A DNA stretch of 64,000 nucleotides from a phage. The stretch lies in sequence record NC_135730.1; one strand, written 5' to 3'. How positions within the stretch are numbered: position 1 is the first letter of the stretch; every line of letters begins with the position of its first letter. The notes beneath the pieces are model-generated. The model saw only the letters and a program-made list of their open reading frames with translations, was not told where the DNA came from and did not search any database. Below are positions 8,925 through 29,108 of this stretch, one piece after another. The position numbers and the translations under genes were made by a program.

Positions 8925-8934
8925 GGAAGACTAG

Positions 8935-9451: not shown

Positions 9452-9498
9452 GCTTTTATGGTTTTGACACACGTTCTTGAATTGCTTGAAAGGTTAAA

Positions 9499-9527: not shown

Positions 9528-9570
9528 ACACAAATATGGTGCACAACATGACTAATAAGGATGCTATAAA

Positions 9571-10304: not shown

Positions 10305-10308
10305 TCTA

Positions 10309-10347
10309 AGGGCCGGATTCCTTTTCTGGGATCTGGCCCTTTTTATT
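10309..10347 (+). terminator. intrinsic terminator before the tape measure gene
   Basis: AGGGCCGGAT ... ATCTGGCCCT hairpin followed by TTTTATT. Confidence 0.45.
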
Positions 10348-10358
10348 ATGAGGAAACC

Positions 10359-12695
10359 ATGGCTACAAACAAAATAGTTGCCACAACAGTCAACAAGATT
10401 GGCTTTGAGATAGAGAACTCCTCCTACAAAAAAGCTGTAGAGAAAATTCGCAGTATTGGGAGGGAGTTCAGGAAACTGGGCGAGGATTTTAACTCAGCCA
10501 ACCCCATGAGTAGATGGCAGGCGGTAGCTGTTAAAACCCAGCAGACAATGCAGAGGGTTGCCAGACAGCAATCTCAGGCAAATGCTAAACTGCACAGAGA
10601 GAGCGTAGCACAGGCCAAGAAAGAGGCTGCAGTAAGGGCTGCAATAGAACGTAGGGAGAATGCGAGACGTAAACAAGCTGTAGGTAATCTTACCGCTAAA
10701 AATCCAGAAATGGCTAGGATGCGTAAGTTCTACCAGCAGCAAGCTAAAGAGGCCAAAAAGGCTGCCAAATCTGCACCAGTGTCTTACGGTGGTTATAAGG
10801 CACCTAAGGCAAGAGTTTTGGCTAATGCCAAATCTTTCAAATATATCCCCGGTAACCCTAATATGGGTGGTGTGGCTTCCGACCCTAACCTTGTGAAAGC
10901 TCAGACAGCCGCTATGAATCGTTATCATAGACAGCTAAGAAGAGACAGTAAAGCTGGTATGGATAATAGGCTTATGTCGGATCGTGAGGCAAGGAGAACC
11001 CACCTCTACAACTCCGCGATAAGACTTTCTGCCAAGTATGGGGCCGGATTCCGTGGAAGCTTGCCAGGATACTCAGAGTTAGAGTCCAGGTTTGCTCGCG
11101 GAGAGATGAAGAAGTCAACCTTTAACGCCCACCTGTCAGCGCTGCAGTCTGGGTTTAAAAGCGCCACCAGCCAAACGCTTACACTAGGCGATGCCATGAG
11201 AGACTTACGTAGATCTGTTATTAATGCAACAGCTGCGTATACAGCTTTTTCTGGATTTGCTGCGGTTAACAGATCTGGTCACATGATGGAGGGGGCAAGT
11301 GCTGCTCTTACTGCTGTTACTGGAGATCCAAACAAAGCCAACAGTGAGGTTGCGTTTGTCCAGCAAGAGGCTATGCGTCTTGGTTTTGATCTCAAATCTG
11401 GTCTTCAAGGTTACGCTCAAATGTCGGTAAACGCCAAAAACCAGATGACAAATCAGGAAGTGCATGAGCTGTTTTCTGCATACTCACAGTATGCTGCTGC
11501 TTATGGTGCCGATGAGGTAAAATACCAGCGCGGTATTATGGCAATCCAACAGATGCTCGGTAAAGGGCAAGTAATGTCTGAAGAACTGAAGCAACAACTT
11601 GCTGAAGCATTGCCTGGTGCATACGAACCTTTTATCAAGGCCACCAAAGAGGCTTTTGGTCTTTCTGAACTCTCCATGGATCAGTTCATGGACATGATGA
11701 AGAAAGGTGAGGTTAAAACAGCCAAGATCATGAAGTATGTGGCTAAGTACATGAACGAGGCATCTGCAGCTGGTTATGAAAGAATGCAGAAGTCTAACGT
11801 GCTGGCAGAAAACAGACTGAAAACCTTCATCGAACTGACTCGTCAGAAACTGTTCACCCGTTGGTCTGACGAACTAACAGAGTTCTATTATACACTAATC
11901 CGCACTGGTGAGACTCTGCAATTTGTGTGGGATGCCTCTGGTGATTTTGTTAGCGGGTTTGTGAGAGGCCTTAACTGGGTAGTTGGTGAACTAAACAACA
12001 CTATAGTCAAGATCCGCATGTTTTTCCTTGAATGGGGGATTAAATGGGGATTCATAACAGCTAAGACGAAGGAATATTCTGAAGAGCTTCATGACACCTT
12101 TAGCTATGCTAAATGGGCAGGGTTTGCTGCTGCCATCATGCTGGTAGTCAACGCCCTAACAAAAGGTTTTGTCATGGCATCCATGCTTGTAAAAACCTTT
12201 AAATTCCTTAACTCTCTAAGGGGTGCAGCTGGAGCAGCGGGTGCCGCTACTACAGAAGGGTCTGGTGGTGGAGCTCCGGCAGGAAAAGGTGGAGGTGGCC
12301 TCAAGACACCTGGTGGCAAAGTTGGTCTGCTCGGTAAGCTGGGCATTATCGGTACAATACTAAGCGCCGGGGAATTATTTAATGACCGTTACAACCCACT
12401 AAGTGAAAGAAATCAGCAGCTGGATACTATCAGCGATATGATTCGCAAAGATATCATATCGGGAGGTAACGGGTTTGTTAATCCTTTGGACACCTTACCT
12501 GGCGGGACTCTTCCGTTGCCAGGTGGCCCTGGTTTTGCTTCTCAATTAAGAACTATGGAAATGCTACCTTTAGAGATCAGTGATGGGAAAATCACGATTT
12601 CAATAGATGAGGGTGAGTTTAACAAAATATTTGATGCAAAACTTGAGTGGGAGAACAATAAAGATATCAACTTCATGTCTACCGACCTTTGGTAA
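10359..12695 (+). CDS. tail tape measure protein
   Basis: 778-aa ORF with helical N-terminal region and Gly-rich segment (GAAGAAGAATTEGSGGGAPAGKGGGG); located after the chaperone pair. Confidence 0.7.
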   Translation: MATNKIVATTVNKIGFEIENSSYKKAVEKIRSIGREFRKLGEDFNSANPMSRWQAVAVKTQQTMQRVARQQSQANAKLHRESVAQAKKEAAVRAAIERRENARRKQAVGNLTAKNPEMARMRKFYQQQAKEAKKAAKSAPVSYGGYKAPKARVLANAKSFKYIPGNPNMGGVASDPNLVKAQTAAMNRYHRQLRRDSKAGMDNRLMSDREARRTHLYNSAIRLSAKYGAGFRGSLPGYSELESRFARGEMKKSTFNAHLSALQSGFKSATSQTLTLGDAMRDLRRSVINATAAYTAFSGFAAVNRSGHMMEGASAALTAVTGDPNKANSEVAFVQQEAMRLGFDLKSGLQGYAQMSVNAKNQMTNQEVHELFSAYSQYAAAYGADEVKYQRGIMAIQQMLGKGQVMSEELKQQLAEALPGAYEPFIKATKEAFGLSELSMDQFMDMMKKGEVKTAKIMKYVAKYMNEASAAGYERMQKSNVLAENRLKTFIELTRQKLFTRWSDELTEFYYTLIRTGETLQFVWDASGDFVSGFVRGLNWVVGELNNTIVKIRMFFLEWGIKWGFITAKTKEYSEELHDTFSYAKWAGFAAAIMLVVNALTKGFVMASMLVKTFKFLNSLRGAAGAAGAATTEGSGGGAPAGKGGGGLKTPGGKVGLLGKLGIIGTILSAGELFNDRYNPLSERNQQLDTISDMIRKDIISGGNGFVNPLDTLPGGTLPLPGGPGFASQLRTMEMLPLEISDGKITISIDEGEFNKIFDAKLEWENNKDINFMSTDLW

Positions 12696-12706
12696 TAAAC
12701 TGTGCA

Positions 12707-12730
12707 GGGGGGCTCCGGCCCCCTTTATTT
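12707..12730 (+). terminator. intrinsic terminator after the tape measure gene
   Basis: GGGGGC-tccg-GCCCCC then TTTATTTT. Confidence 0.6.
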
Positions 12731-12738
12731 TATCGGTG

Positions 12739-12767
12739 TTGTAAAAACGGCTATTTTATGATACAAT
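12739..12767 (+). promoter_or_regulatory. sigma70-like promoter with extended -10
   Basis: TTGTAA -17- TGaTACAAT, immediately after the tape-measure terminator. Confidence 0.45.
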
Positions 12768-12800
12768 ATCTAGATGGTATCGGAGTGTCCTGGAGAGGTT

Positions 12801-13685
12801 ATGCCAAGCAATATAGTTGATGAAAAAGACCTGTACAAGCCTCAAGAGGTTAAATCTCCAAAGGCTGAAAAGGCAGAGCAGCAAACTGAAAGCGATGTAA
12901 AGTACACTATGTTTGTCAGCGGTCTTAACTATGGCGGTCGCAATACGGAGATGAAGGGTAAAAACTTTACTAACGATCTTGCCATTATCTTCGATCAGGT
13001 TGAGAATTACTCTTTCAAACATTCTGTTGATAAGACTGGGTTTGCGGTGGAAGATAAATCTACCCTGTCAGACCACGCTGTAATTAAAGATGGTGTATTT
13101 TCTTTTACTGGTAGGGTAAATACATCCCCACACATAATCTATGAGCAAAACTACATTGATAGGAATACTGACTCTAAAAACCCTGCAGCATCTATGCGAC
13201 CAGGCGCTGCATTGGAGGCTTTGACTGAGATTATCAATAAGCGACAGTTGGTTTCTTTGGTTACCGAGGAGAGACTTCTTGAGAACTACATCATAACCAG
13301 TCTTTCTGCCAACAAGTCTGTTGGTGAAGGAGCTGCAATGGTGTTTGATGTAGAACTTACAGAGTTCCGCACATTCTACTTGAATAAGGTTGTTAATGCA
13401 ACTGTATACAGCAATCCTAAGAAAGTAGGCAAGACCCAACAAAAAGGCGCTGTCAACGACTGTAAGAATGGTAGTAACGTAGGTAACAAGAGGGACACAG
13501 GAGCATTCGCAGACACTGCATCCACAAACGCTGCAGAGGAGTGGCAGCCATACAAATCTATGATGTGGACAGATGAAAACGGTGTTACCCAATCGGCTGC
13601 GGATTGGTATTATCAGGAATATGGAAGACCTTCTACCATAGTCCCATCTGAGCAGGGAAACTACAACAAAGTTAACGGGAAATAA
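12801..13685 (+). CDS. putative baseplate / tail protein
   Basis: First ORF after the tape measure; ATG 12801 with RBS GGAGAGG downstream of promoter 12739-12767 (track start 12774). Confidence 0.3.
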   Translation: MPSNIVDEKDLYKPQEVKSPKAEKAEQQTESDVKYTMFVSGLNYGGRNTEMKGKNFTNDLAIIFDQVENYSFKHSVDKTGFAVEDKSTLSDHAVIKDGVFSFTGRVNTSPHIIYEQNYIDRNTDSKNPAASMRPGAALEALTEIINKRQLVSLVTEERLLENYIITSLSANKSVGEGAAMVFDVELTEFRTFYLNKVVNATVYSNPKKVGKTQQKGAVNDCKNGSNVGNKRDTGAFADTASTNAAEEWQPYKSMMWTDENGVTQSAADWYYQEYGRPSTIVPSEQGNYNKVNGK

Positions 13686-15771: not shown

Positions 15772-16488
15772 ATGGCTACGCTTTACAGTGATATATTGAT
15801 GGACCCACAGACAGGTGATTTGGCGATAGACAAAGGTCTTGAGTTGATAGATTCAAACCAGGTAAGTCTGCGCCAGCGCTTGTGGATGAGGTTTAATACG
15901 TGGAAGGGGAGCTGGTACTTTGACGAGTTGTTTGGCTTCCCTTATATGGACTTTCTCAGTAAGAAGGTCATGAAGACTGTTCTTGATAACAAGATTATGG
16001 AAGTGGCAAGACAAGAGCCGGATGTGCTAAACATCATAAACTTCCAGTCTACCATGGATCGAAGATCGAGAACATACCAAGCGTTCTTTGAGGTTGTTAC
16101 CAAAGAGAACGAGATTGTAAGGCTGGCTTTCGTAGGTCTTGATCAGTTCACCTACCCACAGCCTGATTCTGGGACAACCTCTCTCTGTGATGATGAGGGT
16201 TGGATTAAGTGGGCTAATAAACTGTACTATCTGATCAACTTCAGGTTGCCTAGAACCGGAGATGCCACATGGTGGAACCAGTATGCTGGTCCTGAGATGG
16301 AAAACCCGATCCCTGTAGGCTCTCTGTTGACTCAGGATAAAGATCTGCTGATGACTGAGGCAGAACAAACCATTAACCGCAATACCTGGACGCTTGCTCC
16401 AGATGAGCGCGAATACTCTGGTGTTATTGCTACCTCCAATGACGAGGCTATTGCCAACCAGTCTGGTCGTGCTATTGATGTTAACTAA
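15772..16488 (+). CDS. putative baseplate wedge protein (gp25 / gpW-like N-terminus)
   Basis: N-terminal pattern DPQTGDL...GSWYFDELFGFPY resembles gp25-like proteins; follows the spike gene. Confidence 0.35.
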   Translation: MATLYSDILMDPQTGDLAIDKGLELIDSNQVSLRQRLWMRFNTWKGSWYFDELFGFPYMDFLSKKVMKTVLDNKIMEVARQEPDVLNIINFQSTMDRRSRTYQAFFEVVTKENEIVRLAFVGLDQFTYPQPDSGTTSLCDDEGWIKWANKLYYLINFRLPRTGDATWWNQYAGPEMENPIPVGSLLTQDKDLLMTEAEQTINRNTWTLAPDEREYSGVIATSNDEAIANQSGRAIDVN

Positions 16489-16497: not shown

Positions 16498-17166
16498 ATG
16501 GCTGTAGCTTATCCTACAATACCAATTCCAGATCTTGAAGATGCAGAAACAGTCCTGAGTGATGACTTCTTGGTTGTCAACCAGACTGATGGGACAAGAA
16601 AGGCTAAGATTGACGATGTTGTCAACGATCTTAGCATTACTAAGATAGTCTATTTCACAGAGGGTGGTTATCTTAAGAGCAAGAAGGACTTTGCTTATGA
16701 TCCAGAAACTAAGCGCTACTACACGTGGAACGGGGATTATCCTAAAATAATCCTCCCAGACTCCACGGTAGAGGGCGCTGGGGGTGTGTCTGCAAATGCC
16801 TGGTCTGTTTTTGGTGAGCTTGCTGCAACTTCTTCTGGCAGAATAGTTGATTACGGATCTATCGGTGGTCAGCTTGATATGGATCTTGAAGTTGCGGATA
16901 CCTTTAAAGTTCGACTAACTTCAAATACCACAATCTCTTTTGAAAATCAAACAGAAGGTCTTGAAGGGGTGGCGAGAACTATAACCGTATGCATTACTCA
17001 GACCTCTGGCGGCAACAAAGTCTATTGGCCTGGTAATGTTAAATGGTCCTACGGAAGAGATCCTATCCTAACATTTACAGCTGGTGCAACAGACATTTTC
17101 AAGTTGGAAACCTACGACAACGGGTTAACTTGGTACGGGGCACTGATTATCGCAGGAGCTATCTAA
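16498..17166 (+). CDS. short tail fibre / tailspike-like protein with shared N-terminal anchor domain
   Basis: N-terminal ~100 aa align with the N-terminus of the 1266-aa fibre (DDFLVV..D.TR.KI.DVV...EGG.L...DFAY...AW). Confidence 0.45.
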   Translation: MAVAYPTIPIPDLEDAETVLSDDFLVVNQTDGTRKAKIDDVVNDLSITKIVYFTEGGYLKSKKDFAYDPETKRYYTWNGDYPKIILPDSTVEGAGGVSANAWSVFGELAATSSGRIVDYGSIGGQLDMDLEVADTFKVRLTSNTTISFENQTEGLEGVARTITVCITQTSGGNKVYWPGNVKWSYGRDPILTFTAGATDIFKLETYDNGLTWYGALIIAGAI

Positions 17167-17167
17167 G

Positions 17168-19765
17168 ATGCGTATTCAACATAACATTGATAACGTATTT
17201 CAGATGATTGAGGGGCACAGGAAGTGCCTCGATAACAACACAGGTATTACCAACACCCCTACACAAAATAAGCTAGTAAACCCTGATGGTCTTATAGCTG
17301 CAGGGTGGGCAGGTAATAAGATAAATAATGATTGGGCAATGCATGAGTCCCAAGCTGTGTTGATTCTGGGATACATTGAAGCATACAGAGCATCGAAAAG
17401 CGATTTCTATCTGGATAGGGCAAAAGATGCTTGGGAAGCTTACAATAGTCATCTTCTGGGTGCATATGCAGTAGAAAGTAAAATGCAAAGATTGTCCCAC
17501 TACCCTCTATCCACAGATGGGGTTCCATCACATGGTGGGTTTAAAGATGTGGTGGTGTCTTTTACCAATGGTAGAGGAAAAATCCCAGCTGGATCTCCGA
17601 CATGGGGGGAATACCTGGACAAGGCATTCCAAGCGTATAACGGCGTGTTAGGAAGAAACACTGTAGACTCTGATGTTTACGGCGGCACAGATGCTAACCC
17701 AGATTGGACAACATCCGGATTAAGTTGGTGGGTTGAGTGGTATATAGCATGGGATGGTAATCGCTATTGGGCTAACGGTAGTATAGCTGATAGTGGTCAT
17801 ACGTCTGTAGAGTTTGGCACAATCCAATTACAAGATAAGGGTGTTACAGGCAACCACAAAGTGACCTATTGTGTAAGATTACCTCAAGAGCAGGGTGGAT
17901 CGGTGATACCTGCAGGATCCCCTGTAATTGTAAATCCCATAAACGTGGTTGCAGATAATCAGGCCCCAGAGTTGGACGGGGAAGAAATGTGGTGTGACGC
18001 TTGTTATCAACTCTACACCTTGACAGGTGAGGAAAAGTATTACACCGCGTTTGAACAGTCTTACAACAAGTTGCTTAATTTCAGTGATATAAACGCCTAC
18101 GACAAACTGTTTAGGAAGACCACGTTGATTAAGGCACCGTTTACAGATGGTACTTGTCTTGTTGCAGGAACAGTTCCTGTCATGAGCAGGGACAGTGACG
18201 GATATATCAATTTTAGAATGAACGCACGCCAGCCTTGCGAAATAATTCAAAAAGGGACTACATACAAAATAGGCAGAGATGCTGAAATTGTTATGAATTT
18301 CGGAGGAGAAGGGGTTCTGTTCCAGCCACATTTCATCATTAATGATGGCAACAATAACAAAAAACAGTACAGGATAGGTGTTCCTTTTGGAGGGGCAGAG
18401 GTAACAGAAATAGTTGCCAAGGTTACCGATTTCGTAGAGGTGGTTGGTAAAGACGGTAATCCATATCTCTTACCTAAAGAGGAAAACATTGTCGTAAGTG
18501 GTGGCGCTAGTGTTAGTATGCAGTATGATACCGACATTTACAACCACTCTGACAACTTCACCCGTTGTAATATAGCAAGAGGTAAAGTAACTTTCAATTT
18601 TGGAAGAGAGATTTCTTTAAACTCAGTAACTTATCGATCAGATGATGAGATGGTAAGGGTCAAATTTCTTGACAAAGACAGGTGGTTATGGTATGCTGAT
18701 CTATATGCCACTAATGGACAATGGATAACAGAAACTCTTACTCTAGGAGATTTCAAACTAGATCCGACACAACCTCATCACACTGAAGAAGAGATTAAAC
18801 CTTTCTTTGCTAATCCTAAGGGGCTCACCTCTGTAGATTTCAGCCTAAGCGACAGGCAGATAGGTAATGGCTTGTTTGATCTATATTGCGTCAACACGCT
18901 GCCGCAATTCTATATTGCAGATAGGGATGCTTATCTAATCTGGTTTAGCGTATGGATGGCAAGCAAGACAGAATCAACCGCTAAGGTTGGCGATTGCTAT
19001 GTCAGAAACTACAAGCAAGGTGCATACAGGCACACACCAGGTGTGTTCCCTGCCGGAAAGGTGATAGATAAGGAAAACTATCTCTTAGAGGAAAGGCCAA
19101 ATTGGCCCTACCCAGGCATGCAATACCCGGCAGTCTACTGCATGGGTGCAGAAAACATAGATCGCCATAGATTGTCAAATACAATAGGCTTTCTGTATGA
19201 CGCTCAAGTCTGGTATAATAATACATTTAAGACAGAGGGTCCAGTTGCCTCACGTTATGTATGGCAAAGAGGTAATGAAGGGTTGACTGGTTGGTGGGAG
19301 ATGGTAGATAACTCCAAGCTCCAGTCAAGATCTTTTGTTGCTGCGTGCCGCACAATCTATGAGCTCAAGAAACATAAAGAACCTGTTGATGAAAGATTAT
19401 TCCTGTTCTGCCAGAAATGGGCATGGTTCCTCAACAGATTCCAGTCATCTCATTCAGGAAATCTGCCTACAGACTTTAACACCTCTGGGGGATATTCTTA
19501 TCAAGACAGAGGGGACAGGATGTGGGTGGTAGGTGAATGGCTTGCAGGTTGCTGCTGGCTAGGTCTGTGCGGGTATTCAGAGACAATACCTCAAATAGAT
19601 ATTGTTGTAGAAGCCTGTATGAAGCTACTGCAAAAGCACCACTTCATCAATGGTGATAATGTTTTAAACGGCTGCTGGGCAGTTTCTGACCCGGTGGGCT
19701 ATCACTCTGGCGAAATCCTTCGCGGTCTGGGCCTCTATGCTCAATACCGTGGATTGTACCTTTAA
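17168..19765 (+). CDS. tail-associated protein with (alpha/alpha)6 glycosidase-like domain
   Basis: 865-aa ORF in the tail operon; segments such as ESQAVLILGYIEAYRASKSDFYLDRAKDAWEAY resemble six-hairpin glycosidase folds. Confidence 0.35.
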   Translation: MRIQHNIDNVFQMIEGHRKCLDNNTGITNTPTQNKLVNPDGLIAAGWAGNKINNDWAMHESQAVLILGYIEAYRASKSDFYLDRAKDAWEAYNSHLLGAYAVESKMQRLSHYPLSTDGVPSHGGFKDVVVSFTNGRGKIPAGSPTWGEYLDKAFQAYNGVLGRNTVDSDVYGGTDANPDWTTSGLSWWVEWYIAWDGNRYWANGSIADSGHTSVEFGTIQLQDKGVTGNHKVTYCVRLPQEQGGSVIPAGSPVIVNPINVVADNQAPELDGEEMWCDACYQLYTLTGEEKYYTAFEQSYNKLLNFSDINAYDKLFRKTTLIKAPFTDGTCLVAGTVPVMSRDSDGYINFRMNARQPCEIIQKGTTYKIGRDAEIVMNFGGEGVLFQPHFIINDGNNNKKQYRIGVPFGGAEVTEIVAKVTDFVEVVGKDGNPYLLPKEENIVVSGGASVSMQYDTDIYNHSDNFTRCNIARGKVTFNFGREISLNSVTYRSDDEMVRVKFLDKDRWLWYADLYATNGQWITETLTLGDFKLDPTQPHHTEEEIKPFFANPKGLTSVDFSLSDRQIGNGLFDLYCVNTLPQFYIADRDAYLIWFSVWMASKTESTAKVGDCYVRNYKQGAYRHTPGVFPAGKVIDKENYLLEERPNWPYPGMQYPAVYCMGAENIDRHRLSNTIGFLYDAQVWYNNTFKTEGPVASRYVWQRGNEGLTGWWEMVDNSKLQSRSFVAACRTIYELKKHKEPVDERLFLFCQKWAWFLNRFQSSHSGNLPTDFNTSGGYSYQDRGDRMWVVGEWLAGCCWLGLCGYSETIPQIDIVVEACMKLLQKHHFINGDNVLNGCWAVSDPVGYHSGEILRGLGLYAQYRGLYL

Positions 19766-19769
19766 CATA

Positions 19770-19789
19770 GGGGGCTGTTTGCCCCCTTT
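19770..19789 (+). terminator. GC hairpin / weak terminator
   Basis: GGGGGC-tgttt-GCCCCC followed by only TTT, then the RBS of the next gene. Confidence 0.3.
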
Positions 19790-19800
19790 CAGGAGAAAGA

Positions 19801-22800
19801 ATGGCTGATATTAAAGTTGTCAGAATTGAATCTCTTCCTGCCACTACCGCAGTGACAGAGGATGATTACCTGGTTGTTCAACAACCAGACCTGACCCGTC
19901 GTGTAAAAATTGGCGATGTTGTCCATGTTGATGGGACTGTTTCTCATGTAATCTCCTTTAAGGAAGGTGGTAAGTTAAACGGCCCAATGGATTTTGCCTA
20001 CTTCGAAGAGGAAGACCTCTACCTGCGTTGGAAAGGCGAATTTCCGCACACTGTTCCTGCATTGTCTTCACCGTACTCCGATGGTGGGATTACTGACGCT
20101 GCATGGACGGTATATACAGACCCGTCCTTAAGGGAGGAGCTGGAATCTACCATTGGCGCATCTATGATCATGACAGCCGAAGGGCAGTCTGTCCAGGATG
20201 TAATGGATGTTACTGTTCAGACAGCTAACGATGCCAAAGCACTTGCACAGCGTGTAGATTTTGGTACAGTGCACACTGTAGGCGATGTTATTCACCTTGA
20301 TAACTTTGTTGGCCCTGCAGTTATTGAAGAGGGAAGAACTACCAACTACCCTTCTGCAGCAGCTGGTGAAAAATTTCTGAACGGTGTGGTATCTCGTCGT
20401 GATACTACAACTGTTGATGGTATTTTCCGTGGCGCTACCACCGGAGCCATGTACACCATTGCAGTAACCAACGGTGTAGCAACAACGAAAAGAATAGCAC
20501 TTCGTGATGAATTTAAACGCCTGGAGGCAAACAACCCAACAAGAACAGTTATCCGTGCTGGAGATGATTTAAACACGGCAGGGTACTTGCAGCTTGACGC
20601 AACAGGCCGTTGGGGTATGTGGAACCAACAAACAGCCTCGTGGCAACCTCTTGCTATAGAGCAAGGAGGCACAGGGGCTAGAGATGCCGCTGGAGTCCGT
20701 ATCAATATCGGTGCTTTCTATAAGCAACGTGCAGCCCTTGAGCCAAATTTCAATATCAATAACTTGACTGGTAATCAGGATGGTGTATACTACCAGCCGA
20801 TGACTGCTTATGCAACTGAGGCAAATGGTTACCCTGCAGGTTCTGGTGCTGGTCACCTGATTGTTTGGCAGAACAATGCTAACGGCGGTACAGGTTGTCG
20901 TCAGGAATACTATCCATTCTCTAACGTAGATGTTTGGTATTTAAGAACCTATCAGGCCAACACAAATCAGTGGACTGCATGGCAGCCGATGGTCAGACCT
21001 CGTAACGATGATACCTTTAGAGCGCACATCGGTCTCGGGTCTAGAAACTCCCCTACCTTTGGGCACCTTTACCTGTCTCAAAGTTCTGCTGATGTTAAGT
21101 CAGCATCAGGTATTGTTAACGGGGACAAATACAGCGCTGACGGTGTCCTTGAGCATGGATATAGGATCTACTCTGAGGTAAGAAACGACAATAAGGCTTG
21201 GTTGACAATCCACCTGCACAAAGGTGCAAAAGGATCTGAAACTCATAGATATTTAGGTTTCCGCGAAGATGGCGTGTTAGACTGCCCTAAATACATGCAG
21301 GTTGGGGATCTTACTGGTCAGCTGACAAACTGGGGTCTTGGAGAATGGATCCGTAGTTCAGGGGCAGAAAGAGGCTTCTGGGGGTCCAAGAAAGCCGCCA
21401 AGATGGTTGTCTGGGATGGTGGGATGGACGAATCCGGTAACGGCACTCTGGAATGGGGTGTTTATAACAACCGGAAGGCCAAGTGGGAACCTTTACCTCA
21501 AGCCGCAGGTGGTACTGGGGCTACAACTTTAGCAGATGCTCAGAATCTGTTCAAAGTTCCTATAGCAGCAGGTGTGAAAGACTTCTTAACACTGCCAAGA
21601 ACCGCAGGGATGGAAGATGGGAAATACTACCCGATCATCGTTAGAACAGATCCGTACTATGCTCCAGCAACTGGTACTGATATTACCATAGTTACCAGAT
21701 CGTCATCTGGAAATGACCCTATGAACTGTGCTACCTTACAGTGTCACTATAGAACTGGTGGTTGGACAGACAGAGGAGACTCTTTCTACGGGGTAGTAAA
21801 TTTCTACCAGAATGAAAAAGCACTTCTTGGGATGGTTGCTCCAACAAGGGGTAAACAAGAGTATGTTGCTTTCTATGTAGAGGCTCGTGCTTTCCCTGTC
21901 AGCATATACGCAAGTAGAAATGTTATCGAAGTGTTTACCAGAGAGCAAGATTACCAGGTCGGCTCTGTAACAAACAATCAGGATGGGGTTAAGTTCGTTG
22001 CACCTCTCCAGTCAGCAGATTTGAATCTTGCTATTCTTGGAGATAACAACACCAATACCAGACCTATTGTTGACTTCAAAGGTACTTCAGGGTTCTACAC
22101 TGGCGGCGGCACACAGTGGCACTATATAGGCACTGCTGAACGCTATGCTGTGATGAGCAAAATGAATATGCCAAAAGTCGAGCTATGGGCAGACGGTCTT
22201 GACTATTTGTGCTACGGCAGTCCTAGAAAGGCGTTATTCTCTAATGCAGGATTCCAGTGTGCATCCGATGGGACAGAGGATCTGACTAACGGTACGTTTA
22301 CCTCTAAATGCGGTAATGGTGCTGGTCTCAAAGGTCAGGCAGAGTTCAGATCTACTCCGGAAGCGGGTCAAGTTATTGTTCGCGATGTTGTAGGCACAGC
22401 TCATAGATTCTACAACTTCAACAAGGATGGTACTTTCTCAGCTCCTGGTGGTTTTGTATGCCATACTGGTGCAGACTGGAACAACCAGTTTGGGCCTAAC
22501 AACCCATCCAAAATAATGGCAGGCAATGTCAACGGACCTGAAGGATCGATGGTTGTTGGTGGGTTGTCTGTAGCGTTTTCTGGAAACTATGCCTTCCAAA
22601 TGGCTGGTCGCCTTGATCAGTTATACACCAGATCTATCGAGGGTGGTAACCATAGGGCATGGAACAAGGTTATACAGCACAGAGGACAGGGTCTTGGGAC
22701 AAACGACCTTAACGACTACAAAGGAGATAGGGAGGGTTTTTATCATCAGGAGACCAATGCTCAAGCCGCACTTGATAAAAACTACCCATGCTCCCAGGCA

Positions 22801-23601
22801 GGTACTCTCGTTGTCTACAGAAACTATGCCAACGTTCCAGAGAGTTGCGTACAGGAATATACAACATATCTTGGAGAAAAATTCCTGCGTTATGGAACAA
22901 CGATAGGTGGTGTTTTCACATGGGGCCATTGGCAGCAGCTTGGTGGTAAGGGTATCACTCTAAAAACTCAAGGATCCAATCTTGAACCGGAGTTCACAAT
23001 ACACACGGGTGGTGGGACGGATGTTACCAACACTTCCAACATGCCTTCTAATACAGGCAGGTTGTACTATTGGGGTAATGGCGCAGATAGGAAGAATGTG
23101 CTGGAGTTTCAGATAAGTGATAACTCAACAGTCGCCAACTGGGTATTCCACTGTGGCGCTAAGGCAGATGAGGCTAAATCAAGATATTTTGCTGTCAACG
23201 GCACGGTAGAATGTACTACTGTTAGCCAAAGTTCCGATAGGGACCTGAAGGATAACATAGAGGTCATACCTAACGCTCTGGAAGCAATTAGAAAAATGAA
23301 AGGCTATACCTACACCTTGAAAGAGAATGGTATGCCTTATGCAGGCGTGATTGCTCAAGAGGTTATGGAAGCATTGCCAGAGGCAGTAGGATCTTTCGTG
23401 AAAAGGAAGGAAATAGAAGGTCCTACTCAAGACGGCATTCCTTTGATGACCGAGGAAAGGTTCTATAACGTTGACTACGCAGCTGTAACAGGCTTGCTTG
23501 TCCAGGTTTGCAGGGAACAGGACGATAAAATAACCGCCCTTGAGGAGCAGGTTAAAAAATTGACAGAGGTTGTTACTGGGTTGCAAGAGAAACTGAAGTA
23601 A
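19801..23601 (+). CDS. tail fibre / tailspike with C-terminal intramolecular chaperone (peptidase S74-like) domain
   Basis: C-terminal SDRDLKDNIE...GYTYTLKENG...GVIAQEV matches the auto-cleaving chaperone domain of endosialidase / L-shaped fibre proteins; N-terminal anchor domain shared with 16498-17166. Confidence 0.65.
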   Translation: MADIKVVRIESLPATTAVTEDDYLVVQQPDLTRRVKIGDVVHVDGTVSHVISFKEGGKLNGPMDFAYFEEEDLYLRWKGEFPHTVPALSSPYSDGGITDAAWTVYTDPSLREELESTIGASMIMTAEGQSVQDVMDVTVQTANDAKALAQRVDFGTVHTVGDVIHLDNFVGPAVIEEGRTTNYPSAAAGEKFLNGVVSRRDTTTVDGIFRGATTGAMYTIAVTNGVATTKRIALRDEFKRLEANNPTRTVIRAGDDLNTAGYLQLDATGRWGMWNQQTASWQPLAIEQGGTGARDAAGVRINIGAFYKQRAALEPNFNINNLTGNQDGVYYQPMTAYATEANGYPAGSGAGHLIVWQNNANGGTGCRQEYYPFSNVDVWYLRTYQANTNQWTAWQPMVRPRNDDTFRAHIGLGSRNSPTFGHLYLSQSSADVKSASGIVNGDKYSADGVLEHGYRIYSEVRNDNKAWLTIHLHKGAKGSETHRYLGFREDGVLDCPKYMQVGDLTGQLTNWGLGEWIRSSGAERGFWGSKKAAKMVVWDGGMDESGNGTLEWGVYNNRKAKWEPLPQAAGGTGATTLADAQNLFKVPIAAGVKDFLTLPRTAGMEDGKYYPIIVRTDPYYAPATGTDITIVTRSSSGNDPMNCATLQCHYRTGGWTDRGDSFYGVVNFYQNEKALLGMVAPTRGKQEYVAFYVEARAFPVSIYASRNVIEVFTREQDYQVGSVTNNQDGVKFVAPLQSADLNLAILGDNNTNTRPIVDFKGTSGFYTGGGTQWHYIGTAERYAVMSKMNMPKVELWADGLDYLCYGSPRKALFSNAGFQCASDGTEDLTNGTFTSKCGNGAGLKGQAEFRSTPEAGQVIVRDVVGTAHRFYNFNKDGTFSAPGGFVCHTGADWNNQFGPNNPSKIMAGNVNGPEGSMVVGGLSVAFSGNYAFQMAGRLDQLYTRSIEGGNHRAWNKVIQHRGQGLGTNDLNDYKGDREGFYHQETNAQAALDKNYPCSQAGTLVVYRNYANVPESCVQEYTTYLGEKFLRYGTTIGGVFTWGHWQQLGGKGITLKTQGSNLEPEFTIHTGGGTDVTNTSNMPSNTGRLYYWGNGADRKNVLEFQISDNSTVANWVFHCGAKADEAKSRYFAVNGTVECTTVSQSSDRDLKDNIEVIPNALEAIRKMKGYTYTLKENGMPYAGVIAQEVMEALPEAVGSFVKRKEIEGPTQDGIPLMTEERFYNVDYAAVTGLLVQVCREQDDKITALEEQVKKLTEVVTGLQEKLK
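23233..23598 (+). other. intramolecular chaperone auto-processing domain (within the 19801-23601 CDS)
   Basis: Last ~122 residues starting at SDRDLKDNIE; predicted self-cleavage at the Ser preceding DRDLKDNIE. Confidence 0.5.
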
Positions 23602-23608: not shown

Positions 23609-23636
23609 GCCCTCGCTTCGGCGGGGGCTTTTTGTT
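23609..23636 (+). terminator. intrinsic terminator (TTCG tetraloop)
   Basis: GCCCTCGC-ttcg-GCGGGGGC then TTTTTGTTTG. Confidence 0.65.
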
Positions 23637-23700: not shown

Positions 23701-24291
23701 ATGTTTTTATGGGAAAGGCCTAGATACCTTCCAGATATTAGATTGGAGCTGCTGGCAGATATTGTTACGTTTAAAAGTCCGTTTACAGGTAAAACGCAAA
23801 AAGTAACCTATGCCACACCTAACTGGAAAGGCACTTTGACGGTTTCCAATATCAGCGAGTCACAGTTGCTAGAGCTTAAGAGCTTTGTTGATCAGGTGTA
23901 TAAAGATGGAAACATCTTTCTTATTAAAACTTACGGTCACTCAGTTACAGCTAATGAGCCAATCGCCCTTGGGCCTACTGGTAACGACGATTTTTTGAAG
24001 ACGGTTGGGTGGGAGCCAAACAGAGACATAGCCAGAGCTGGGGATAAAATATCTGTCAATGATGAATTGAAAGTGGTAACAGCTCCAGTGCGTAGCGATG
24101 GTGTTGGGTCTGCTGTTATAAGCATATCTCCAAGACTTAGAAAACCTATTGCCGCAGGGGACACTATGAAGATAATAACTCAATCCCCGAAGGGTAGGTT
24201 TCATATCAGAGATATTTATAAAATTAAGCAAAAAGTCGATGCTATGCAAAAAGGTGATAATATAGTTATCAACTTCTTTGAGGATTTCTAA
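23701..24291 (+). CDS. putative minor tail protein (gpM / distal tail protein-like position)
   Basis: 196-aa ORF, first gene after promoter 23641-23669, upstream of the L/K/J-like genes; call is by position only. Confidence 0.3.
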   Translation: MFLWERPRYLPDIRLELLADIVTFKSPFTGKTQKVTYATPNWKGTLTVSNISESQLLELKSFVDQVYKDGNIFLIKTYGHSVTANEPIALGPTGNDDFLKTVGWEPNRDIARAGDKISVNDELKVVTAPVRSDGVGSAVISISPRLRKPIAAGDTMKIITQSPKGRFHIRDIYKIKQKVDAMQKGDNIVINFFEDF

Positions 24292-24292
24292 G

Positions 24293-24844
24293 ATGATCAG
24301 AGCGCCATTAGATAATTTATTTCTTGAAAAGCTGGAGCTTGATGGTGTTGAGATCTTAATTGCTGCAAAGCTGGAGCTACCGACAGGAACTGTCAGGGTG
24401 TGCTCAGGCACTGGTGTTGTAGTAATTGAGGGGCAACATTTTATAGGGATAGGGGGATCAGCAACATTAACTGCTGTGTCTGAGAAAGATGCCACCAACT
24501 TCGGATCTGTGGTAGCGACATTGAACGGGTTTGATCCTAAGTATGTGGGTGATCTGCTGAAGACGGAGTATTCTGGTTGTCGTGCCACGTTGTACATTAC
24601 CGCTATGGAGAATGGTCTACCTGTCACAACTAATGGCTTGTTTGACGGCCTTATAACAGATATGGCTATTCAGACAGGTGAGAATAGTGCTTTGTCAATA
24701 TCCATCTCTTCCATCTTCAACAGTTGGTTAAGAGGTTTTCCTTATCGGTACACGGAGGAAAGCCACAGCTCAAGAAACGATAATGACAGATTTTTTAAAT
24801 ATGTGGATCAGGTGGCGAGCCGCCCGATCATTTGGGAGGTTTAA
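24293..24844 (+). CDS. putative minor tail protein (gpL-like position)
   Basis: ATG 24293 with RBS GAGGA (track TTG 24278); position between M-like and K-like genes. Confidence 0.3.
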   Translation: MIRAPLDNLFLEKLELDGVEILIAAKLELPTGTVRVCSGTGVVVIEGQHFIGIGGSATLTAVSEKDATNFGSVVATLNGFDPKYVGDLLKTEYSGCRATLYITAMENGLPVTTNGLFDGLITDMAIQTGENSALSISISSIFNSWLRGFPYRYTEESHSSRNDNDRFFKYVDQVASRPIIWEV

Positions 24845-25269
24845 TGAGCACACACCCTCGTTTAGTGGATTGGCAAGAAAGATTGTGGAAAGTGTTTGAC
24901 GAAGAGGCCACCATACCTTTTGAATGGGGATTCCACGATTGCTGCACCTTTGCAGCTAAGTGTGTTGATGCCCAATACGGAACAGATTTTCTTTCCAACT
25001 TCGAAGGAACGTATAAAACAGAGTTGGAAAGCAAAAGATGGTGCATGCTTCGTTTCAAAACTACACACCTGCCTACTATTTTTGATCTCTTTATGACTCG
25101 ACTGGATACTCCTAAACAGGTTCAGCGTGGCGATATTGTTATTTTCGAAGGTCTGAACGGGCTCACCGCTGGTGTGTTCTGGAACAACCAGATTTGGGCG
25201 AAAGGTGATAAAGGGGTCTTTATGTTCGACATGAAAGATTCTATCGTTGTTGATGTCTGGAGGTATTAA
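24844..25269 (+). CDS. putative tail assembly protein with Cys-His peptidase-like motif (gpK-like position)
   Basis: ATG 24844 with RBS GGGAGG; HDCC motif; directly upstream of the J-like gene. Confidence 0.3.
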   Translation: MSTHPRLVDWQERLWKVFDEEATIPFEWGFHDCCTFAAKCVDAQYGTDFLSNFEGTYKTELESKRWCMLRFKTTHLPTIFDLFMTRLDTPKQVQRGDIVIFEGLNGLTAGVFWNNQIWAKGDKGVFMFDMKDSIVVDVWRY

Positions 25270-28200
25270 TGCCAATTGCAATGATTGATAACATCGTTGC
25301 TTCTGCAAGATCTTCAAGTTATGACTGGAACGCATCCAAGGCAGCTCTGGCTGACAGCCTGAACACTGTGACCACCAGAACTTTGGATAAGATTTTTGAG
25401 GGCAACAAATCTTACAGAAGTCAGCAAGATAGACAAAAGCTTCTCAGATCTTCTGCTGCACCTTGCTCTGTAGTGTATGGAAAGACACGCACATCTGGAT
25501 TGCTTGCGTTTTTGGAGCAGGATAGCGACAGAACCCTCCATTGTGCTATTGTTCTTGCCAATCACCCTCTGGAAGGTATAGAAGATATACTTATCGACGG
25601 TAATCCTATTTCCTCGTATGGAGATCTGGTATCGTGGGAGCTACATAACGACAGAAAAACATCTGATCCTTTCATGGGTACACACTGCCCATCATGGTCA
25701 CCTGACATGATAGGTAGAGGGATCAGTTGGCTACGTGCCAGCTTCAGGTTTGACCCTAACAAGTTTCCTTTTGGGTTGCCAAACGTTACACTCGTCAAGA
25801 TTGGTAAAAAATGCTATGATCCTCGTATCAGTAAAGAGGTGTACACCAATAACGCTGCCTTGGTGATCCTAGACTATTTAAGAACGTACCTTAAATGTCC
25901 TGACGAAACCATCAACTGGGAGTCCTTCAAGGAGGCTGCCAACATATGCGACGAGGCGGTAAAAAACGCAGACGGAACCAGTGAGCGCCGTTACACCATT
26001 AACGGTGAGTTTGACATGGATGAGGCCCCAGCAAGTATTATGGCAGAAATGCTGAAAGCTTGCGGTGCAGATCTTAGTTATGTTGCTGGTAAGTATGGTT
26101 TGCTGGTTGGTGCATACTATGGCCCAGCAACAATGACACTTAGTGAGGACTGTGTCTGTGGTGAGGTTAAGATCTATCCGGAAGCCTCATTTGACAAAAG
26201 ATCCAACACAATAACTGGCAGATTCACTAGCCCGACCAAAGGGTATTCTGAAACAGATTTTCCATCAGTGTTTGTCCCAGAGTGGATAGAGAAGGATGGA
26301 GAAAGAAAGATAATCGATATAGACTATCGCTTTGTTACCAGCCCTTATCAAGCTCAGCGTGTTTCTGCAATCTTCTTAAGACGTGCTAGAGCTGGCAGGA
26401 TTATTGAAGTCACCTGCAATATGCGAGGTTTTAAATTTAAGCCTGGCCGTTATGTTACAATGGACCTCCCAAGTATTGGTATAGTGGGCCAAGAAATGAG
26501 GGTTCTTGAATGGGAGTTCACCAAAAAGGGCGGTGTCAAGGTAAAACTTCGTCAAGATGCTAAAGAGTGGAATGATGCCACAGGGCAACTTCCGGATTCC
26601 GGCGATGTAGATATTCCGATATCCCCGTCCGGTGTAGCTCAGCCGCAAAACTTCAGATACTCAGTTCTCCAAGCTGGGGAAGTAACTCACGGTGTTTTGG
26701 CCTGGGACAACGTTGGGACTTACGCTCAAAATATTGTGCAGGTAAGAAAGAACGGAGAGATTGTTTGGACAGCACAGACAGTTGAGCAGTTTGTCCGTGT
26801 TGAAGGTCTGACTAAAGGTTCCTACACAGCCACTGTTGTTGCAACATCTTATAAAGGTGGTGTATCTCCAGAAGCGTATTGTGAGTTTAACATTCAGGCA
26901 CCTGAAGCTCCGGTTTCTGTAGAGGTTAAGCAAGGATACTTTGCTATCACCTTGATTCCGCATAGTAGGGATTTAGCAAGTGTTAGCACCCAGTATGACT
27001 TTTGGACATCCGGTATGACAAGGTTGCCCGACACCAGTGATGCAACCGTTACTTCAAACGCCACCCGTATGGGTGTTGGTTCAACTTGGACATCTGAAGG
27101 TCTGCAGAACGATAAGGTTTATTATTGGTATATTCGAACCACAAACGCTTTTGGTAGTTCTCAGTTTGTAGAATGCGCTGCACGCTGCTACACCTCTATT
27201 GAGGATTTGATGCCTCAGATAGATGCTGAATTCAAAAAGACAGAAACTTATAAAGAGTTGATGAGCACTTTGGATTCCTCTATTGAAGAGGTTGAAAATC
27301 GTGTCACAGAACTTAACAGGTACATGGATGGTAGGGTAGATGAGGCATTCCAGCAACTTGGAGACAGAATAGGTGCGGTAGTTACAGAGACAACTCAGAA
27401 GTTTGAGGATGTCAATGGCAATATCACAGCGCTGGATAGGAAACTTGTTGCTGCACAGAACAAGTTCACCAACGATCTGAACACTGAAAGTGGAAGATTG
27501 GCATCCCTGATTGAGACAACCAATAAAGCAACTACTGATCTTCTGAACAAAAAGACAGAGGCTTTAGATGAGAAATTGGTTGCCGCCAAAGGTGAGCTGG
27601 TAGAGCAGATAGAGGGAGTTGAGAGCGGGTATTTAGCCGGAGATAAAACTCTGGATGGTAAGATCAATACTCAGAGAACAGAACTTGACGCAAGCATCTT
27701 GAGCACTAACCAGGCCACTGTGGATCTTTTGAACAGGACATCTGAAACTCTGGATCAAAAGATTAGTCAGACAAACGCGACGGTATCTAAAAACTATACC
27801 ACCCTTGACGGCAAGATAACTACCGCAAAAACTGACCTCAACACCTTGATTGCCAATACCAACAAGGCCACCACTGACTTGTTGAATCAGAAAACATCTG
27901 CACTGTCAGAGCAGATAACTTCTGCACGTGGGGAGATTTCTACCAACAAGCAAGCGATTGATGCTTTGGATGGAAAACTGACCTCCACAAAAACAGCGCT
28001 GGATGCTACAATTTCCGATACCAATAAAGCCACTGTGGACCTTATCAACGGCACAGCGTCAGCTATTCGTCAAGAACTTGCTGTTGCTAAGCAGGAGATC
28101 ATTGATGATGTTGGGGATGTGTCTGAGATCAGGGCTGCAGTAGCTACAACATCTAAGGCTGTAACCGACTTAGAGGGTAAAGTAAATGCTCAATGGGGCA

Positions 28201-29108
28201 CAAAAATACAGGTAGACTCCGCAGGGAATAAATATGTTGCAGGTATCCAGCTGGGGATGGAAGGGTCTGGGGGCCAAGTTCAATCCTACTTCATGGTTAG
28301 TGCAAACAATTTTGCGGTATACAACCCAGGAAATGGAACAGCAACCCTTGCTTTCGCAATCAAGAACAACCAAGCGTTCTTGAAAGACGCTTTTATAGAG
28401 AATGGCACGATCTCCTCTGCCAAGATCGCACAAGAAATTTCGTCAAACAACTACGATGGCAACGGGTACCATAAATACGGTTGGTATATTAATAAGAACG
28501 GGCACGCCCAATTTATGGATGTGTGGGTGAAAGGCAACATCAACGCCAGTTCTGGTAACTTCACAGGGGCAGTTAACGCCACTAGTGGTACCTTCCGTGG
28601 AGATGTTTATGCCAATAATGGCAGCTTTAGAGGCACCATAGATGCAACCGGAGGTACCTTCCGTGGTCGTGTAGAAGCTTCTGTTATCCGCGCTAACCAG
28701 TTCGAAGGTGCAATTGTTGCACACAGGACTTACGGGGATTGTGCTCCAGTATATAACTCCCAGCAAAGGGTTTGCCGTTGGAGGTGGAGATACGTAGATA
28801 ACGTTTCAGGTCAGGGTAAGAACGTAACATTCTTCTTTAAACTGAATGGTACTCTTGCCAGCTCCCAGCTCAACGTTTGGATAGCCGGACATCAAATCCT
28901 TGCAGGTAAGAAGTACGGAAACGACAACAACGGCATGTGTGCGGTAGGGATAACAGGTCTTGGTGAACAAACCATAGATATTGTTGTTGAAATCTACACA
29001 CCATGGTCAACGTCTTCTGTAACAGGGGTCGCAATATCCTGTCCTACTGTTGTGGTAAGCCGTTCTAACTCAAGCTTCCAAGGACCTTGGAACGAGTCTC
29101 ACGACTAA
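25269..29108 (+). CDS. tail tip / central fibre protein, lambda gpJ-like (host specificity protein)
   Basis: Similarity along the whole protein to lambda J as recalled from memory (YTNNAALVILDYL vs YSNNMAWCLWDML; GYFAITLIPH vs GYFQITATPH; YYWYIRTTNAFG vs YYFYIRSVNTVG; QWGTKIQVD..YVAGIQLGMEG vs MWAVKIEQT..YVAGIGLSMED). Confidence 0.65.
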   Translation: MPIAMIDNIVASARSSSYDWNASKAALADSLNTVTTRTLDKIFEGNKSYRSQQDRQKLLRSSAAPCSVVYGKTRTSGLLAFLEQDSDRTLHCAIVLANHPLEGIEDILIDGNPISSYGDLVSWELHNDRKTSDPFMGTHCPSWSPDMIGRGISWLRASFRFDPNKFPFGLPNVTLVKIGKKCYDPRISKEVYTNNAALVILDYLRTYLKCPDETINWESFKEAANICDEAVKNADGTSERRYTINGEFDMDEAPASIMAEMLKACGADLSYVAGKYGLLVGAYYGPATMTLSEDCVCGEVKIYPEASFDKRSNTITGRFTSPTKGYSETDFPSVFVPEWIEKDGERKIIDIDYRFVTSPYQAQRVSAIFLRRARAGRIIEVTCNMRGFKFKPGRYVTMDLPSIGIVGQEMRVLEWEFTKKGGVKVKLRQDAKEWNDATGQLPDSGDVDIPISPSGVAQPQNFRYSVLQAGEVTHGVLAWDNVGTYAQNIVQVRKNGEIVWTAQTVEQFVRVEGLTKGSYTATVVATSYKGGVSPEAYCEFNIQAPEAPVSVEVKQGYFAITLIPHSRDLASVSTQYDFWTSGMTRLPDTSDATVTSNATRMGVGSTWTSEGLQNDKVYYWYIRTTNAFGSSQFVECAARCYTSIEDLMPQIDAEFKKTETYKELMSTLDSSIEEVENRVTELNRYMDGRVDEAFQQLGDRIGAVVTETTQKFEDVNGNITALDRKLVAAQNKFTNDLNTESGRLASLIETTNKATTDLLNKKTEALDEKLVAAKGELVEQIEGVESGYLAGDKTLDGKINTQRTELDASILSTNQATVDLLNRTSETLDQKISQTNATVSKNYTTLDGKITTAKTDLNTLIANTNKATTDLLNQKTSALSEQITSARGEISTNKQAIDALDGKLTSTKTALDATISDTNKATVDLINGTASAIRQELAVAKQEIIDDVGDVSEIRAAVATTSKAVTDLEGKVNAQWGTKIQVDSAGNKYVAGIQLGMEGSGGQVQSYFMVSANNFAVYNPGNGTATLAFAIKNNQAFLKDAFIENGTISSAKIAQEISSNNYDGNGYHKYGWYINKNGHAQFMDVWVKGNINASSGNFTGAVNATSGTFRGDVYANNGSFRGTIDATGGTFRGRVEASVIRANQFEGAIVAHRTYGDCAPVYNSQQRVCRWRWRYVDNVSGQGKNVTFFFKLNGTLASSQLNVWIAGHQILAGKKYGNDNNGMCAVGITGLGEQTIDIVVEIYTPWSTSSVTGVAISCPTVVVSRSNSSFQGPWNESHD

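Follow-up and report, generated by a model that had tools for sequence, protein, structure and literature searches.

Two tail proteins encoded in the window analysed here, a stretch of 64,000 nucleotides (nt) of phage DNA given as one strand of record NC_135730.1, begin with homologous N-terminal modules of ~105 residues. One of them is a protein of 222 amino acids (aa), which is best read as an adaptor, and the other is a lateral tail fibre of 1266 aa; the gene of an 865-aa glycosidase-like protein lies between their genes. It seems rather probable that the module represents one type of head, which serves as a virion anchor on two cargoes, namely the arm composed of the adaptor and the 865-aa protein, and the fibre, and which docks on like (repeated or paralogous) sites of the baseplate. 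Judging by its sequence, the phage is a Vequintavirus, an rV5-like phage of Escherichia coli; the region 16498-23601 (7.1 kb) is 92-97% identical to more than 100 genomes of Vequintavirus (rV5-like) coliphages, and the trio of 222-, 865- and 1266-aa proteins corresponds by position and length to rV5 gp43 (222 aa), gp42 (865 aa) and gp41 (1272 aa in rV5). All three proteins were found in rV5 virions by mass spectrometry (PMC3606486).

Homology of the N-terminal regions

A BLASTP comparison of the 222-aa and 1266-aa proteins gave a single significant match, between aa 8-105 of the former and aa 7-105 of the latter, with 38 of 99 positions identical and one gap (72 bits, E = 2e-18); nothing significant was found between the remaining segments of the two proteins, where all E-values exceeded 4. 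The alignment of the first ~100 residues of the products of 16498-17166 and 19801-23601, which had been claimed in the first-pass annotation, is therefore real. Smith-Waterman alignment of the two 110-aa N-termini gave a score of 177, clearly above that of 2000 shuffled controls (mean 27.9, standard deviation 5.0, maximum 60; z ~30), and the maximum against other 110-aa segments of the fibre was 34. When all six-frame open reading frames (ORFs) of the window were searched by phmmer with either N-terminus, only the other protein was retrieved (E = 2e-17 and 1e-18; next values 0.06-0.5), and a hidden Markov model (HMM) of the first ~50 residues, built from 25 sequences, found these two proteins only (E = 1.5e-23 and 6e-22; next value 1.1). 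Neither method revealed a third carrier of the module among the six-frame ORFs of the 64-kb window.

The motifs quoted for the alignment are present in both proteins, namely DDFLVVNQTDGTRKAKIDDVV / DDYLVVQQPDLTRRVKIGDVV, EGGYL / EGGKL, DFAY and AWSV / AWTV, with the correction that the spacing given as TR.KI is actually TR..KI. The coordinates of the annotation were right, position 20130 being codon 110 of the fibre gene; the span 16498-20130 also takes in the entire unrelated gene of the 865-aa protein (17168-19765).

Organisation of the shared module

The module is composed of an N-peptide of ~45 residues, followed by a Tail_spike_N beta-domain. The latter matches Pfam family PF18668 with 41.0 bits in the 222-aa protein (aa 51-105) and 40.5 bits in the 1266-aa protein (aa 46-103), the curated gathering threshold being 25 bits. 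Both domains thereby belong to the fold that constitutes the D2 part of the "head" in the solved structures of CBA120 TSP1/3/4 and G7C gp63.1. In Sf11 gp13 (residues 67-124) and G7C gp66 (about residues 400-450), Tail_spike_N is placed behind the true anchor.

The consensus of the N-peptide reads ..DLP....V...D(Y/F)LVV.Q.D.T(R/K)K....V(V/L), and its residues L13, Q29 and T33 do not vary among 33 sequences from both carrier classes. The N-peptide and Tail_spike_N are separable, as three cases show. In phage phi92, the N-peptide alone is common to gp140 and the endosialidase gp143: it is joined straight to the C-terminal domain in gp140, the orthologue of the short protein, which is devoid of Tail_spike_N, and it stands at the start of gp143. 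In a protein of a Klebsiella Mydovirus, 47 residues are inserted between the two parts.

Structure prediction with AlphaFold2 (AF2) supported the relationship for Tail_spike_N, the strands of which coincide in both proteins, and was of low confidence for the N-peptide in both. The predicted local distance difference test (pLDDT) values of the Tail_spike_N domains were 75-86 (aa 47-105 in the fibre). The strands 57-59, 65-68, 73-77, 83-85 and 102-104 occupy the same residues in both models and the first strand overlaps (47-52 vs 50-52); five of the six strands thus coincide in position. The second AF2 run (fibre aa 1-170, alignment of 16 rows) had a mean pLDDT of 50, and its usable part is aa 47-105. 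In the monomer model of the adaptor, the N-peptide (pLDDT 46-60) is predicted as a hairpin (24-37) and a helix (38-44). Sequence searches of the PDB with both proteins, the 33-sequence profile and a profile of the 865-aa family gave only Tail_spike_N matches and one marginal match to a cellobiose-2-epimerase.

Distribution of the module

An exhaustive search of 1.84 billion representative sequences yielded 451 matching proteins. The whole module begins at residues 1-6 in at least 17 clusters of proteins 110-1599 aa long, whose C-termini are unrelated and among which there are beta-helix spikes and S74 fibres; most of the remaining matches contain Tail_spike_N alone, in an internal position. 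The exhaustive search and a profile of eight sequences were needed for this result, as word-index searches with a two-sequence profile or with the single 222-aa protein gave four matches each.

According to tblastn, two copies of the module per genome are present in Vequintavirus and Seunavirus (GAP31, 4MG, PVP-SE1-like). GAP31 carries the module on the short protein gp221 and, two genes downstream, on a variable receptor-binding protein (RBP), the colanic-acid-degrading spike gp223. The heads of the short proteins of the window and GAP31 are 51% identical, and the heads of the GAP31 short protein and the GAP31 RBP 47%; the corresponding value is 39% for the short protein and the RBP of the window, and 38% for the RBPs of the window and GAP31. 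The RBP heads therefore form no tight orthologous class.

Single carriers of the module occur as well. In the Klebsiella Mydovirus VLCpiM5a (7084-13596), a tailspike of 635 aa and a protein of 1531 aa occupy the position of the trio, and the latter contains the N-peptide, the insertion mentioned above and Tail_spike_N. It was considered whether the 1531-aa protein could be a "Rosetta stone" fusion of the adaptor and the 865-aa protein, and this was rejected: the best BLASTP match to the 865-aa protein had an E-value of 2.5, and the protein is another RBP. Since no C-terminal domain of the adaptor was seen near this carrier in the one locus inspected, the anchor seems to be independent of the pair formed by the adaptor and the 865-aa protein. 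In the small temperate Erwinia myovirus phiEt88, the module starts ~33 residues into the single fibre. Inspection of phiEt88 and of Salmonella phage 40, which is a fragmented Seunavirus-like record, did not reveal an acceptor.

Two observations on database records can be added. About 18-23 GenBank records of "Campylobacter phages" (MG0656xx, host C. jejuni) are 99-100% identical to rV5-like phages of E. coli over these genes and are probably mislabelled, or represent contaminant isolates. A 111-aa fragment, which NCBI assigns to Enterococcus faecium as an incomplete hypothetical protein, is identical to the N-terminus of the fibre, and most likely reflects phage contamination of that assembly.

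The putative adaptor and the 865-aa protein

More than 115 Vequintavirus records contain the 222-aa protein with 98-100% identity, and it matches phrog_7760 (E = 8e-120). Its AF2 model has a mean pLDDT of 75 and comprises three parts, with a confident beta-sandwich at aa 116-221 (pLDDT about 87). The predicted fold of this C-terminal domain resembles TSP4 XD1, T4 gp9 and the N-terminus of gp34, and it is the beta-sandwich common to gp9, gp10 XD1, TSP4 XD1, CpaA and StcE. As this group of neighbours is also the published list of neighbours of TSP4 XD1 (PMC8825819), the domain can be regarded as a putative joint module of the gp9/XD1 type. No solved relative of the C-terminal domain was found in the PDB by sequence.

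Searches retrieved the C-terminal domain of the adaptor from 525 phage records and the 865-aa protein from 524, and the two sets match in their distribution over genera (for example, Salmonella 101 and 101, Erwinia 33 and 33, Vibrio 60 and 62). These records span myoviruses, podoviruses and jumbo phages. In all eight records present in both lists of matches, the short gene lies directly upstream of the large one on the same strand. This type of cassette, a short protein of the phrog_7760/9017 type next to a phrog_2871 protein, was observed in the window, in Salmonella phage BP63 and in Vibrio phage G1. The N-terminal part of the short protein varies: it consists of the N-peptide and Tail_spike_N in Vequintavirus and Seunavirus and of the N-peptide alone in phi92-like phages. 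The upstream protein of BP63 (207 aa) has the same C-terminal domain (E = 2e-17) and an unrelated N-terminus, and in G1, a member of Autographiviridae, the C-terminal domain of the 269-aa upstream protein (E = 2e-18) stands behind the Pfam domain Phage_T7_tail, the tail-attachment domain of the T7 fibres. Conservation across the cassette phages extends to the N-terminal ~50 residues of the large protein (GH..FL.RNTG.T...QHY..NP). In the window, the two genes are separated by 1 nt (stop at 17166, start at 17168), and the ribosome-binding site of the 865-aa gene lies within the last codons of the adaptor gene.

The co-occurrence, the constant adjacency and the exchange of N-termini lead to the conclusion that the 222-aa protein is best read as an adaptor that would mount the 865-aa glycosidase-like protein. 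The first-pass annotation had seen in it a short fibre-like distal protein; this description is not supported, given that its C-terminal domain is tied to the 865-aa protein by strict co-occurrence and adjacency. The label "sialidase", which the protein carries in the annotation of the BASEL phages, was not confirmed either: no Pfam match spoke for it, and the Foldseek matches to sialidase entries covered 26 columns with E-values of 5.7-8.

In the Rosemountvirus BP63 (2836-6416), the pair of genes follows those for the capsid and head completion and precedes the tail genes, and its products might sit close to the neck instead of the baseplate.

The lateral tail fibre

The 1266-aa protein ends with an endosialidase-type chaperone, Peptidase_S74 (PF13884, 55.5 bits with a cutoff of 22). 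Alleles of 617, 827, 988 and 1481 aa have the first 300-350 residues in common (84-100% identity), and beyond this point they are mosaic, with internal deletions and swapped tips. This pattern agrees with the allelic variation described for the BASEL phages (PMC8594841) and with the permutable "TC12" fibres (PMC12143355). In cryo-electron microscopy (cryo-EM) of Bas49 and Bas54, a class of S74/lectin-tipped fibres is contained in composite maps of the baseplate wedge and the distal fibre region (PMC12143355), and we infer that this class corresponds to the gp41-type fibre.

Proposed attachment to the virion

The proposal that the shared module is an N-terminal anchor is supported by its properties. 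It is strictly N-terminal on diverse cargoes, and it stays constant while the cargoes, that is, the distal parts of the fibres, change between alleles and genera. In orthologous adaptors it is replaced with a proven tail-binding domain, that of T7. It is homologous to the heads of the CBA120 and G7C proteins, which in CBA120 are required for the assembly of the complex (PMC8825819), and both of its carriers are present in virions (PMC3606486).

In the proposed mechanism, the head of the 222-aa protein would fix the adaptor to the periphery of the baseplate, and the gp9/XD1-like joint domain of the adaptor would hold the 865-aa protein encoded by the next, translationally coupled gene. The 1266-aa protein would be an exchangeable receptor-binding fibre with a constant proximal part of ~300 aa, mosaic distal modules and an S74 chaperone. 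Both heads would dock on sites of the same kind (repeated or paralogous) of a conserved baseplate component, and the adaptor and the fibre are probably homotrimers each, as related tailspikes suggest by analogy. Two equivalent or paralogous sites are ranked first because of the analogy with CBA120, in which the homologous heads of TSP1 and TSP3 bind different, paralogous sites (PMC8825819).

The occurrence of a single module in the inspected Mydovirus locus and in phiEt88 suggests that the acceptor belongs to a conserved component of the baseplate and not to the pair of the adaptor and the 865-aa protein. As for the identity and number of the acceptor sites, which we infer, the region sought is most likely the wedge, the sheath initiator or the 865-aa protein, and the 238-aa sheath-initiator-like protein encoded directly 5' of the adaptor is one candidate; further candidates are a Baseplate_J-like wedge protein of 496 aa (29214-30704) and a wedge protein of 228 aa (30716-31402). 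In phage phiTE, the fibre N-terminus binds the C-terminus of the sheath initiator and a wedge protein (PMC11972413). The phiTE chain 9cuy_i, the N-terminus of the long fibre on the sheath initiator, matched our model weakly (Foldseek E = 0.43) and was not used for placing the docking site. No gp10-type domain was detected in Pfam scans of 15 proteins of the tail locus.

Several points weigh against this reading. No acceptor was identified: in phmmer searches of the window ORFs with G7C gp66 (aa 1-390 and 131-300), a weak test based on single sequences, the best E-values were 0.7-1.5. The N-peptide was predicted with low confidence in both AF2 runs (pLDDT 26-60), which is weak evidence at most for a segment that might fold only in the trimer or on a partner, and no solved relative of it was found in the PDB by sequence with either protein or the 33-sequence profile. 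In the one Mydovirus locus inspected, no copy of the C-terminal domain of the adaptor was seen near the protein with the N-terminal module. The fold of this domain is also that of glycan-binding modules (CpaA, StcE) and is present at the C-terminal end of long fibres, so the domain could bind a receptor instead. The contact between the adaptor and the 865-aa protein is suggested by gene linkage only.

The two heads might, on the other hand, be rivals for a single acceptor site, as the first-pass annotation would have it if taken literally; each of six positions would then carry either an adaptor arm or a fibre, and the virions would be mosaic. The heads are homologous over their full length, including the N-peptide with its invariant residues in both classes, and within GAP31 the two heads resemble each other more than its fibre head resembles that of the window, as if they tracked one partner. 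However, the two proteins are conserved jointly in all genomes of three genera and are both present in virions (PMC3606486), and the maps of phi92 and of Bas49 and Bas54 show several distinct, six-fold ordered fibres and no mixed occupancy (PMC13450770, PMC12143355). Besides, an identity of 38% is divergence enough for separate sites, and the CBA120 TSP1 and TSP3 heads are located on different sites (PMC8825819). We consider such competition unlikely.

Still less credit can be given to direct binding of the gp43 and gp41 heads to each other, trimer on trimer. In this case gp43 would be the acceptor of the fibre and a three-way connector, joined to gp42 by its gp9/XD1-like C-terminal domain and to the fibre by the pairing of the heads; the branched arm made of gp42, gp43 and gp41 would be fixed to the baseplate through gp42 or through the C-terminal domain of gp43. 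From rV5 to phi92, the three genes lie next to one another in syntenic order; the phi92 fibre I is L-shaped, the endosialidase gp143 having been proposed to form its tip, with a second fibre located at the base (PMC13450770), and CBA120 TSP4-N forms dimers of trimers via its N-terminal face (PMC8825819). However, the T7 tail-binding domain at the N-terminus of orthologous adaptors argues that the N-terminus of the adaptor faces the virion, no adaptor was seen beside the single protein with the N-terminal module in the inspected Mydovirus locus and in phiEt88, and the gp41-type fibre, provided that it is the fibre class of Bas49 and Bas54, was mapped together with the baseplate wedge by cryo-EM (PMC12143355). 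If it were true, this arrangement would represent a branching principle unlike that of the gp10-type XD platforms of T4, CBA120 and G7C.

Finally, the shared region could be a module for trimerisation or the neck, or one that binds carbohydrate, and that acts in folding or in primary glycan contact while other parts attach the proteins, as the Pfam name of PF18668 ("receptor binding N-terminal domain"), the position of Tail_spike_N after the true anchor in Sf11 gp13 and G7C gp66 and its lack in phi92 gp140 might suggest; this, too, has little probability, being applicable to the Tail_spike_N half only, whereas the N-peptide invariably occupies the extreme N-terminus and is kept in phi92 gp140 and gp143, the T7 tail-binding domain substitutes at the same position, and without the TSP1 and TSP3 heads the complex does not form (PMC8825819).

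Comparison with known adsorption apparatuses

The closest relatives among branched complexes are the D1-D2 heads of TSP1 and TSP3 in the Kuttervirus CBA120 and the head of G7C gp63.1 on gp66. Unlike these, the proteins of the window have a 45-residue N-peptide before Tail_spike_N in place of a D1 domain, one carrier of the pair is a putative adaptor of 222 aa rather than a tailspike, and a weak single-sequence search of the window detected no acceptor of the gp10-like XD2/XD3 kind. The adaptors of podophages of the SP6 / K1-5 / K1E type possess the N-terminal domain of T7 gp17 and a platform for tailspikes. The layout proposed for the 222-aa protein is similar, a small protein with its N-terminus on the tail and a C-terminal part that carries an enzymatic host-recognition protein, and its orthologue in Vibrio phage G1 even has an SP6/K1-5-type N-terminal domain (Pfam Phage_T7_tail). 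In contrast to these adaptors, the N-terminal domain in the window is formed by the N-peptide and Tail_spike_N, and the putative cargo is a glycosidase-like protein of ~900 aa rather than a beta-helix tailspike.

The likeness of the adaptor to T4 gp9, gp10 XD1 and CBA120 TSP4 XD1 is confined to the predicted fold, with no sequence similarity, and the XD1-like domain is terminal (C-terminal) in the adaptor but an internal spacer in gp10 and TSP4. Phage phi92 has the same gene order as the window; its gp140 is the short protein that lacks Tail_spike_N, gp141 is a homologue of the 865-aa protein (37% identity), and gp143 has the N-peptide. The part shared by phi92 gp140 and gp143, in contrast to the window, is the ~45-residue N-peptide only, and the RBP is an endosialidase. 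In the cryo-EM studies of phi92, gp140 and gp141 were not assigned and the junctions were not resolved (PMC13450770).

Genomic context

The features of the locus are listed in Table 1. From rV5 through phi92, the common gene order is a sheath-initiator-like protein, the short protein, the ~900-aa protein and a variable RBP; the 238-aa protein of the window is syntenic with phi92 gp139 and GAP31 gp220. In the annotated relative WalterGehring, the trio comes after the genes of the tape measure, the hub, the spike and a baseplate protein and is labelled "sialidase domain protein", "lateral tail fiber protein with glycosidase domains" and "lateral tail fiber protein".

Table 1. Coordinates of the genes, domains and signals of the adaptor and fibre locus in the window
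Feature	Position (strand)	Remarks
238-aa sheath-initiator-like baseplate protein	15772..16488 (+)	Directly 5' of adaptor; phrog_4233 and phrog_120 baseplate wedge subunit
222-aa adaptor protein (putative)	16498..17166 (+)	Orthologue of rV5 gp43, GAP31 gp221, phi92 gp140; ORF
Adaptor N-peptide, aa 1-45	16498..16632 (+)	Aligned with fibre N-terminus
Adaptor Tail_spike_N (PF18668), aa ~46-105	16633..16812 (+)	
Adaptor C-terminal beta-sandwich (predicted), aa 116-222	16843..17163 (+)	T4 gp9 / TSP4-XD1-like
865-aa glycosidase-like "tail protein"	17168..19765 (+)	Orthologue of rV5 gp42, phi92 gp141; ORF, phrog_2871
GC stem-loop GGGGGC-tgttt-GCCCCC + TTT	19770..19789 (+)	Read from sequence
1266-aa lateral tail fibre	19801..23601 (+)	Orthologue of rV5 gp41; ORF, phrog_6578
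Fibre N-peptide, aa 1-45	19801..19935 (+)	
Fibre Tail_spike_N (PF18668), aa ~46-105	19936..20115 (+)	Pfam and AF2
Fibre C-terminal Peptidase_S74 chaperone, aa 1145-1196	23233..23388 (+)	PF13884

The stem-loop with its 6-bp GC stem parts the gene pair of the adaptor and the 865-aa protein from the fibre gene, and it was missed by the terminator scan because only three T follow the stem. A strong terminator-like hairpin (23609-23628; eight pairs, seven of them GC, and a T-run) is located just 3' of the fibre gene. Further downstream, a λ-like tail-tip cassette lies within the myovirus baseplate locus (23701-29108) and encodes a "distal tail protein" of 196 aa (phrog_1302), a protein of 188 aa, a DUF6950 protein of 145 aa and a J-like protein of 1279 aa, in which the Pfam domains Phage_Tail_Tip and Ig_J are present. 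The 690-aa fibre protein encoded at 31402-33474 has a Calx-beta domain as well as the N-terminal and TIM-barrel domains of the non-contractile tail sheath protein of the N4 gp65 type (PF23844, PF23845); it is the deacetylase-type fibre discussed for recognition of the enterobacterial common antigen (ECA) (PMC8594841). The GC skew and AT skew change sign at ~44 to 52 kb (44000-52000), at the transition to a block of minus-strand genes after the gene of a 1878-aa fibre.

Significance for Vequintavirinae and related phages

Constant N-terminal anchors combined with variable distal parts, adaptor proteins and branched complexes are textbook features of phage RBPs. The similarity of the gp43 N-terminus to the particle-binding domain of the P22 tailspike was noted in 2013 (PMC3606486). 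In the literature covered, which excludes Schwarzer et al. 2012, we found neither the paralogy of gp41 and gp43 and of phi92 gp140 and gp143, nor the division of the module into the N-peptide and Tail_spike_N, nor the interpretation of gp43 as an adaptor and the widespread two-gene cassette. The finding is ordinary and unsurprising, and it leaves current concepts of modular RBP anchoring unchanged; it clarifies the role of a small protein and is useful for the assignment of fibres in Vequintavirinae.

Phages of Vequintavirinae and phi92-like phages are candidates for therapy with a broad host range, they possess up to nine fibre proteins, and published work is unsure which gene builds which fibre. 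The reading of gp43 as an adaptor for gp42, together with the head of ~105 residues in gp41, the first ~45 of which are the conserved core, would supply construct boundaries for the swapping of fibres. The same two points would provide a testable assembly map for fitting the low-resolution maps of phi92, Bas49 and Bas54 (for the latter two, EMD-51868 and EMD-51869). The cassette of the adaptor and the ~900-aa enzyme, which recurs with exchanged anchors across several morphotypes and over 500 phage genomes, would be a clean example of an RBP unit that has been re-plugged onto different tails.

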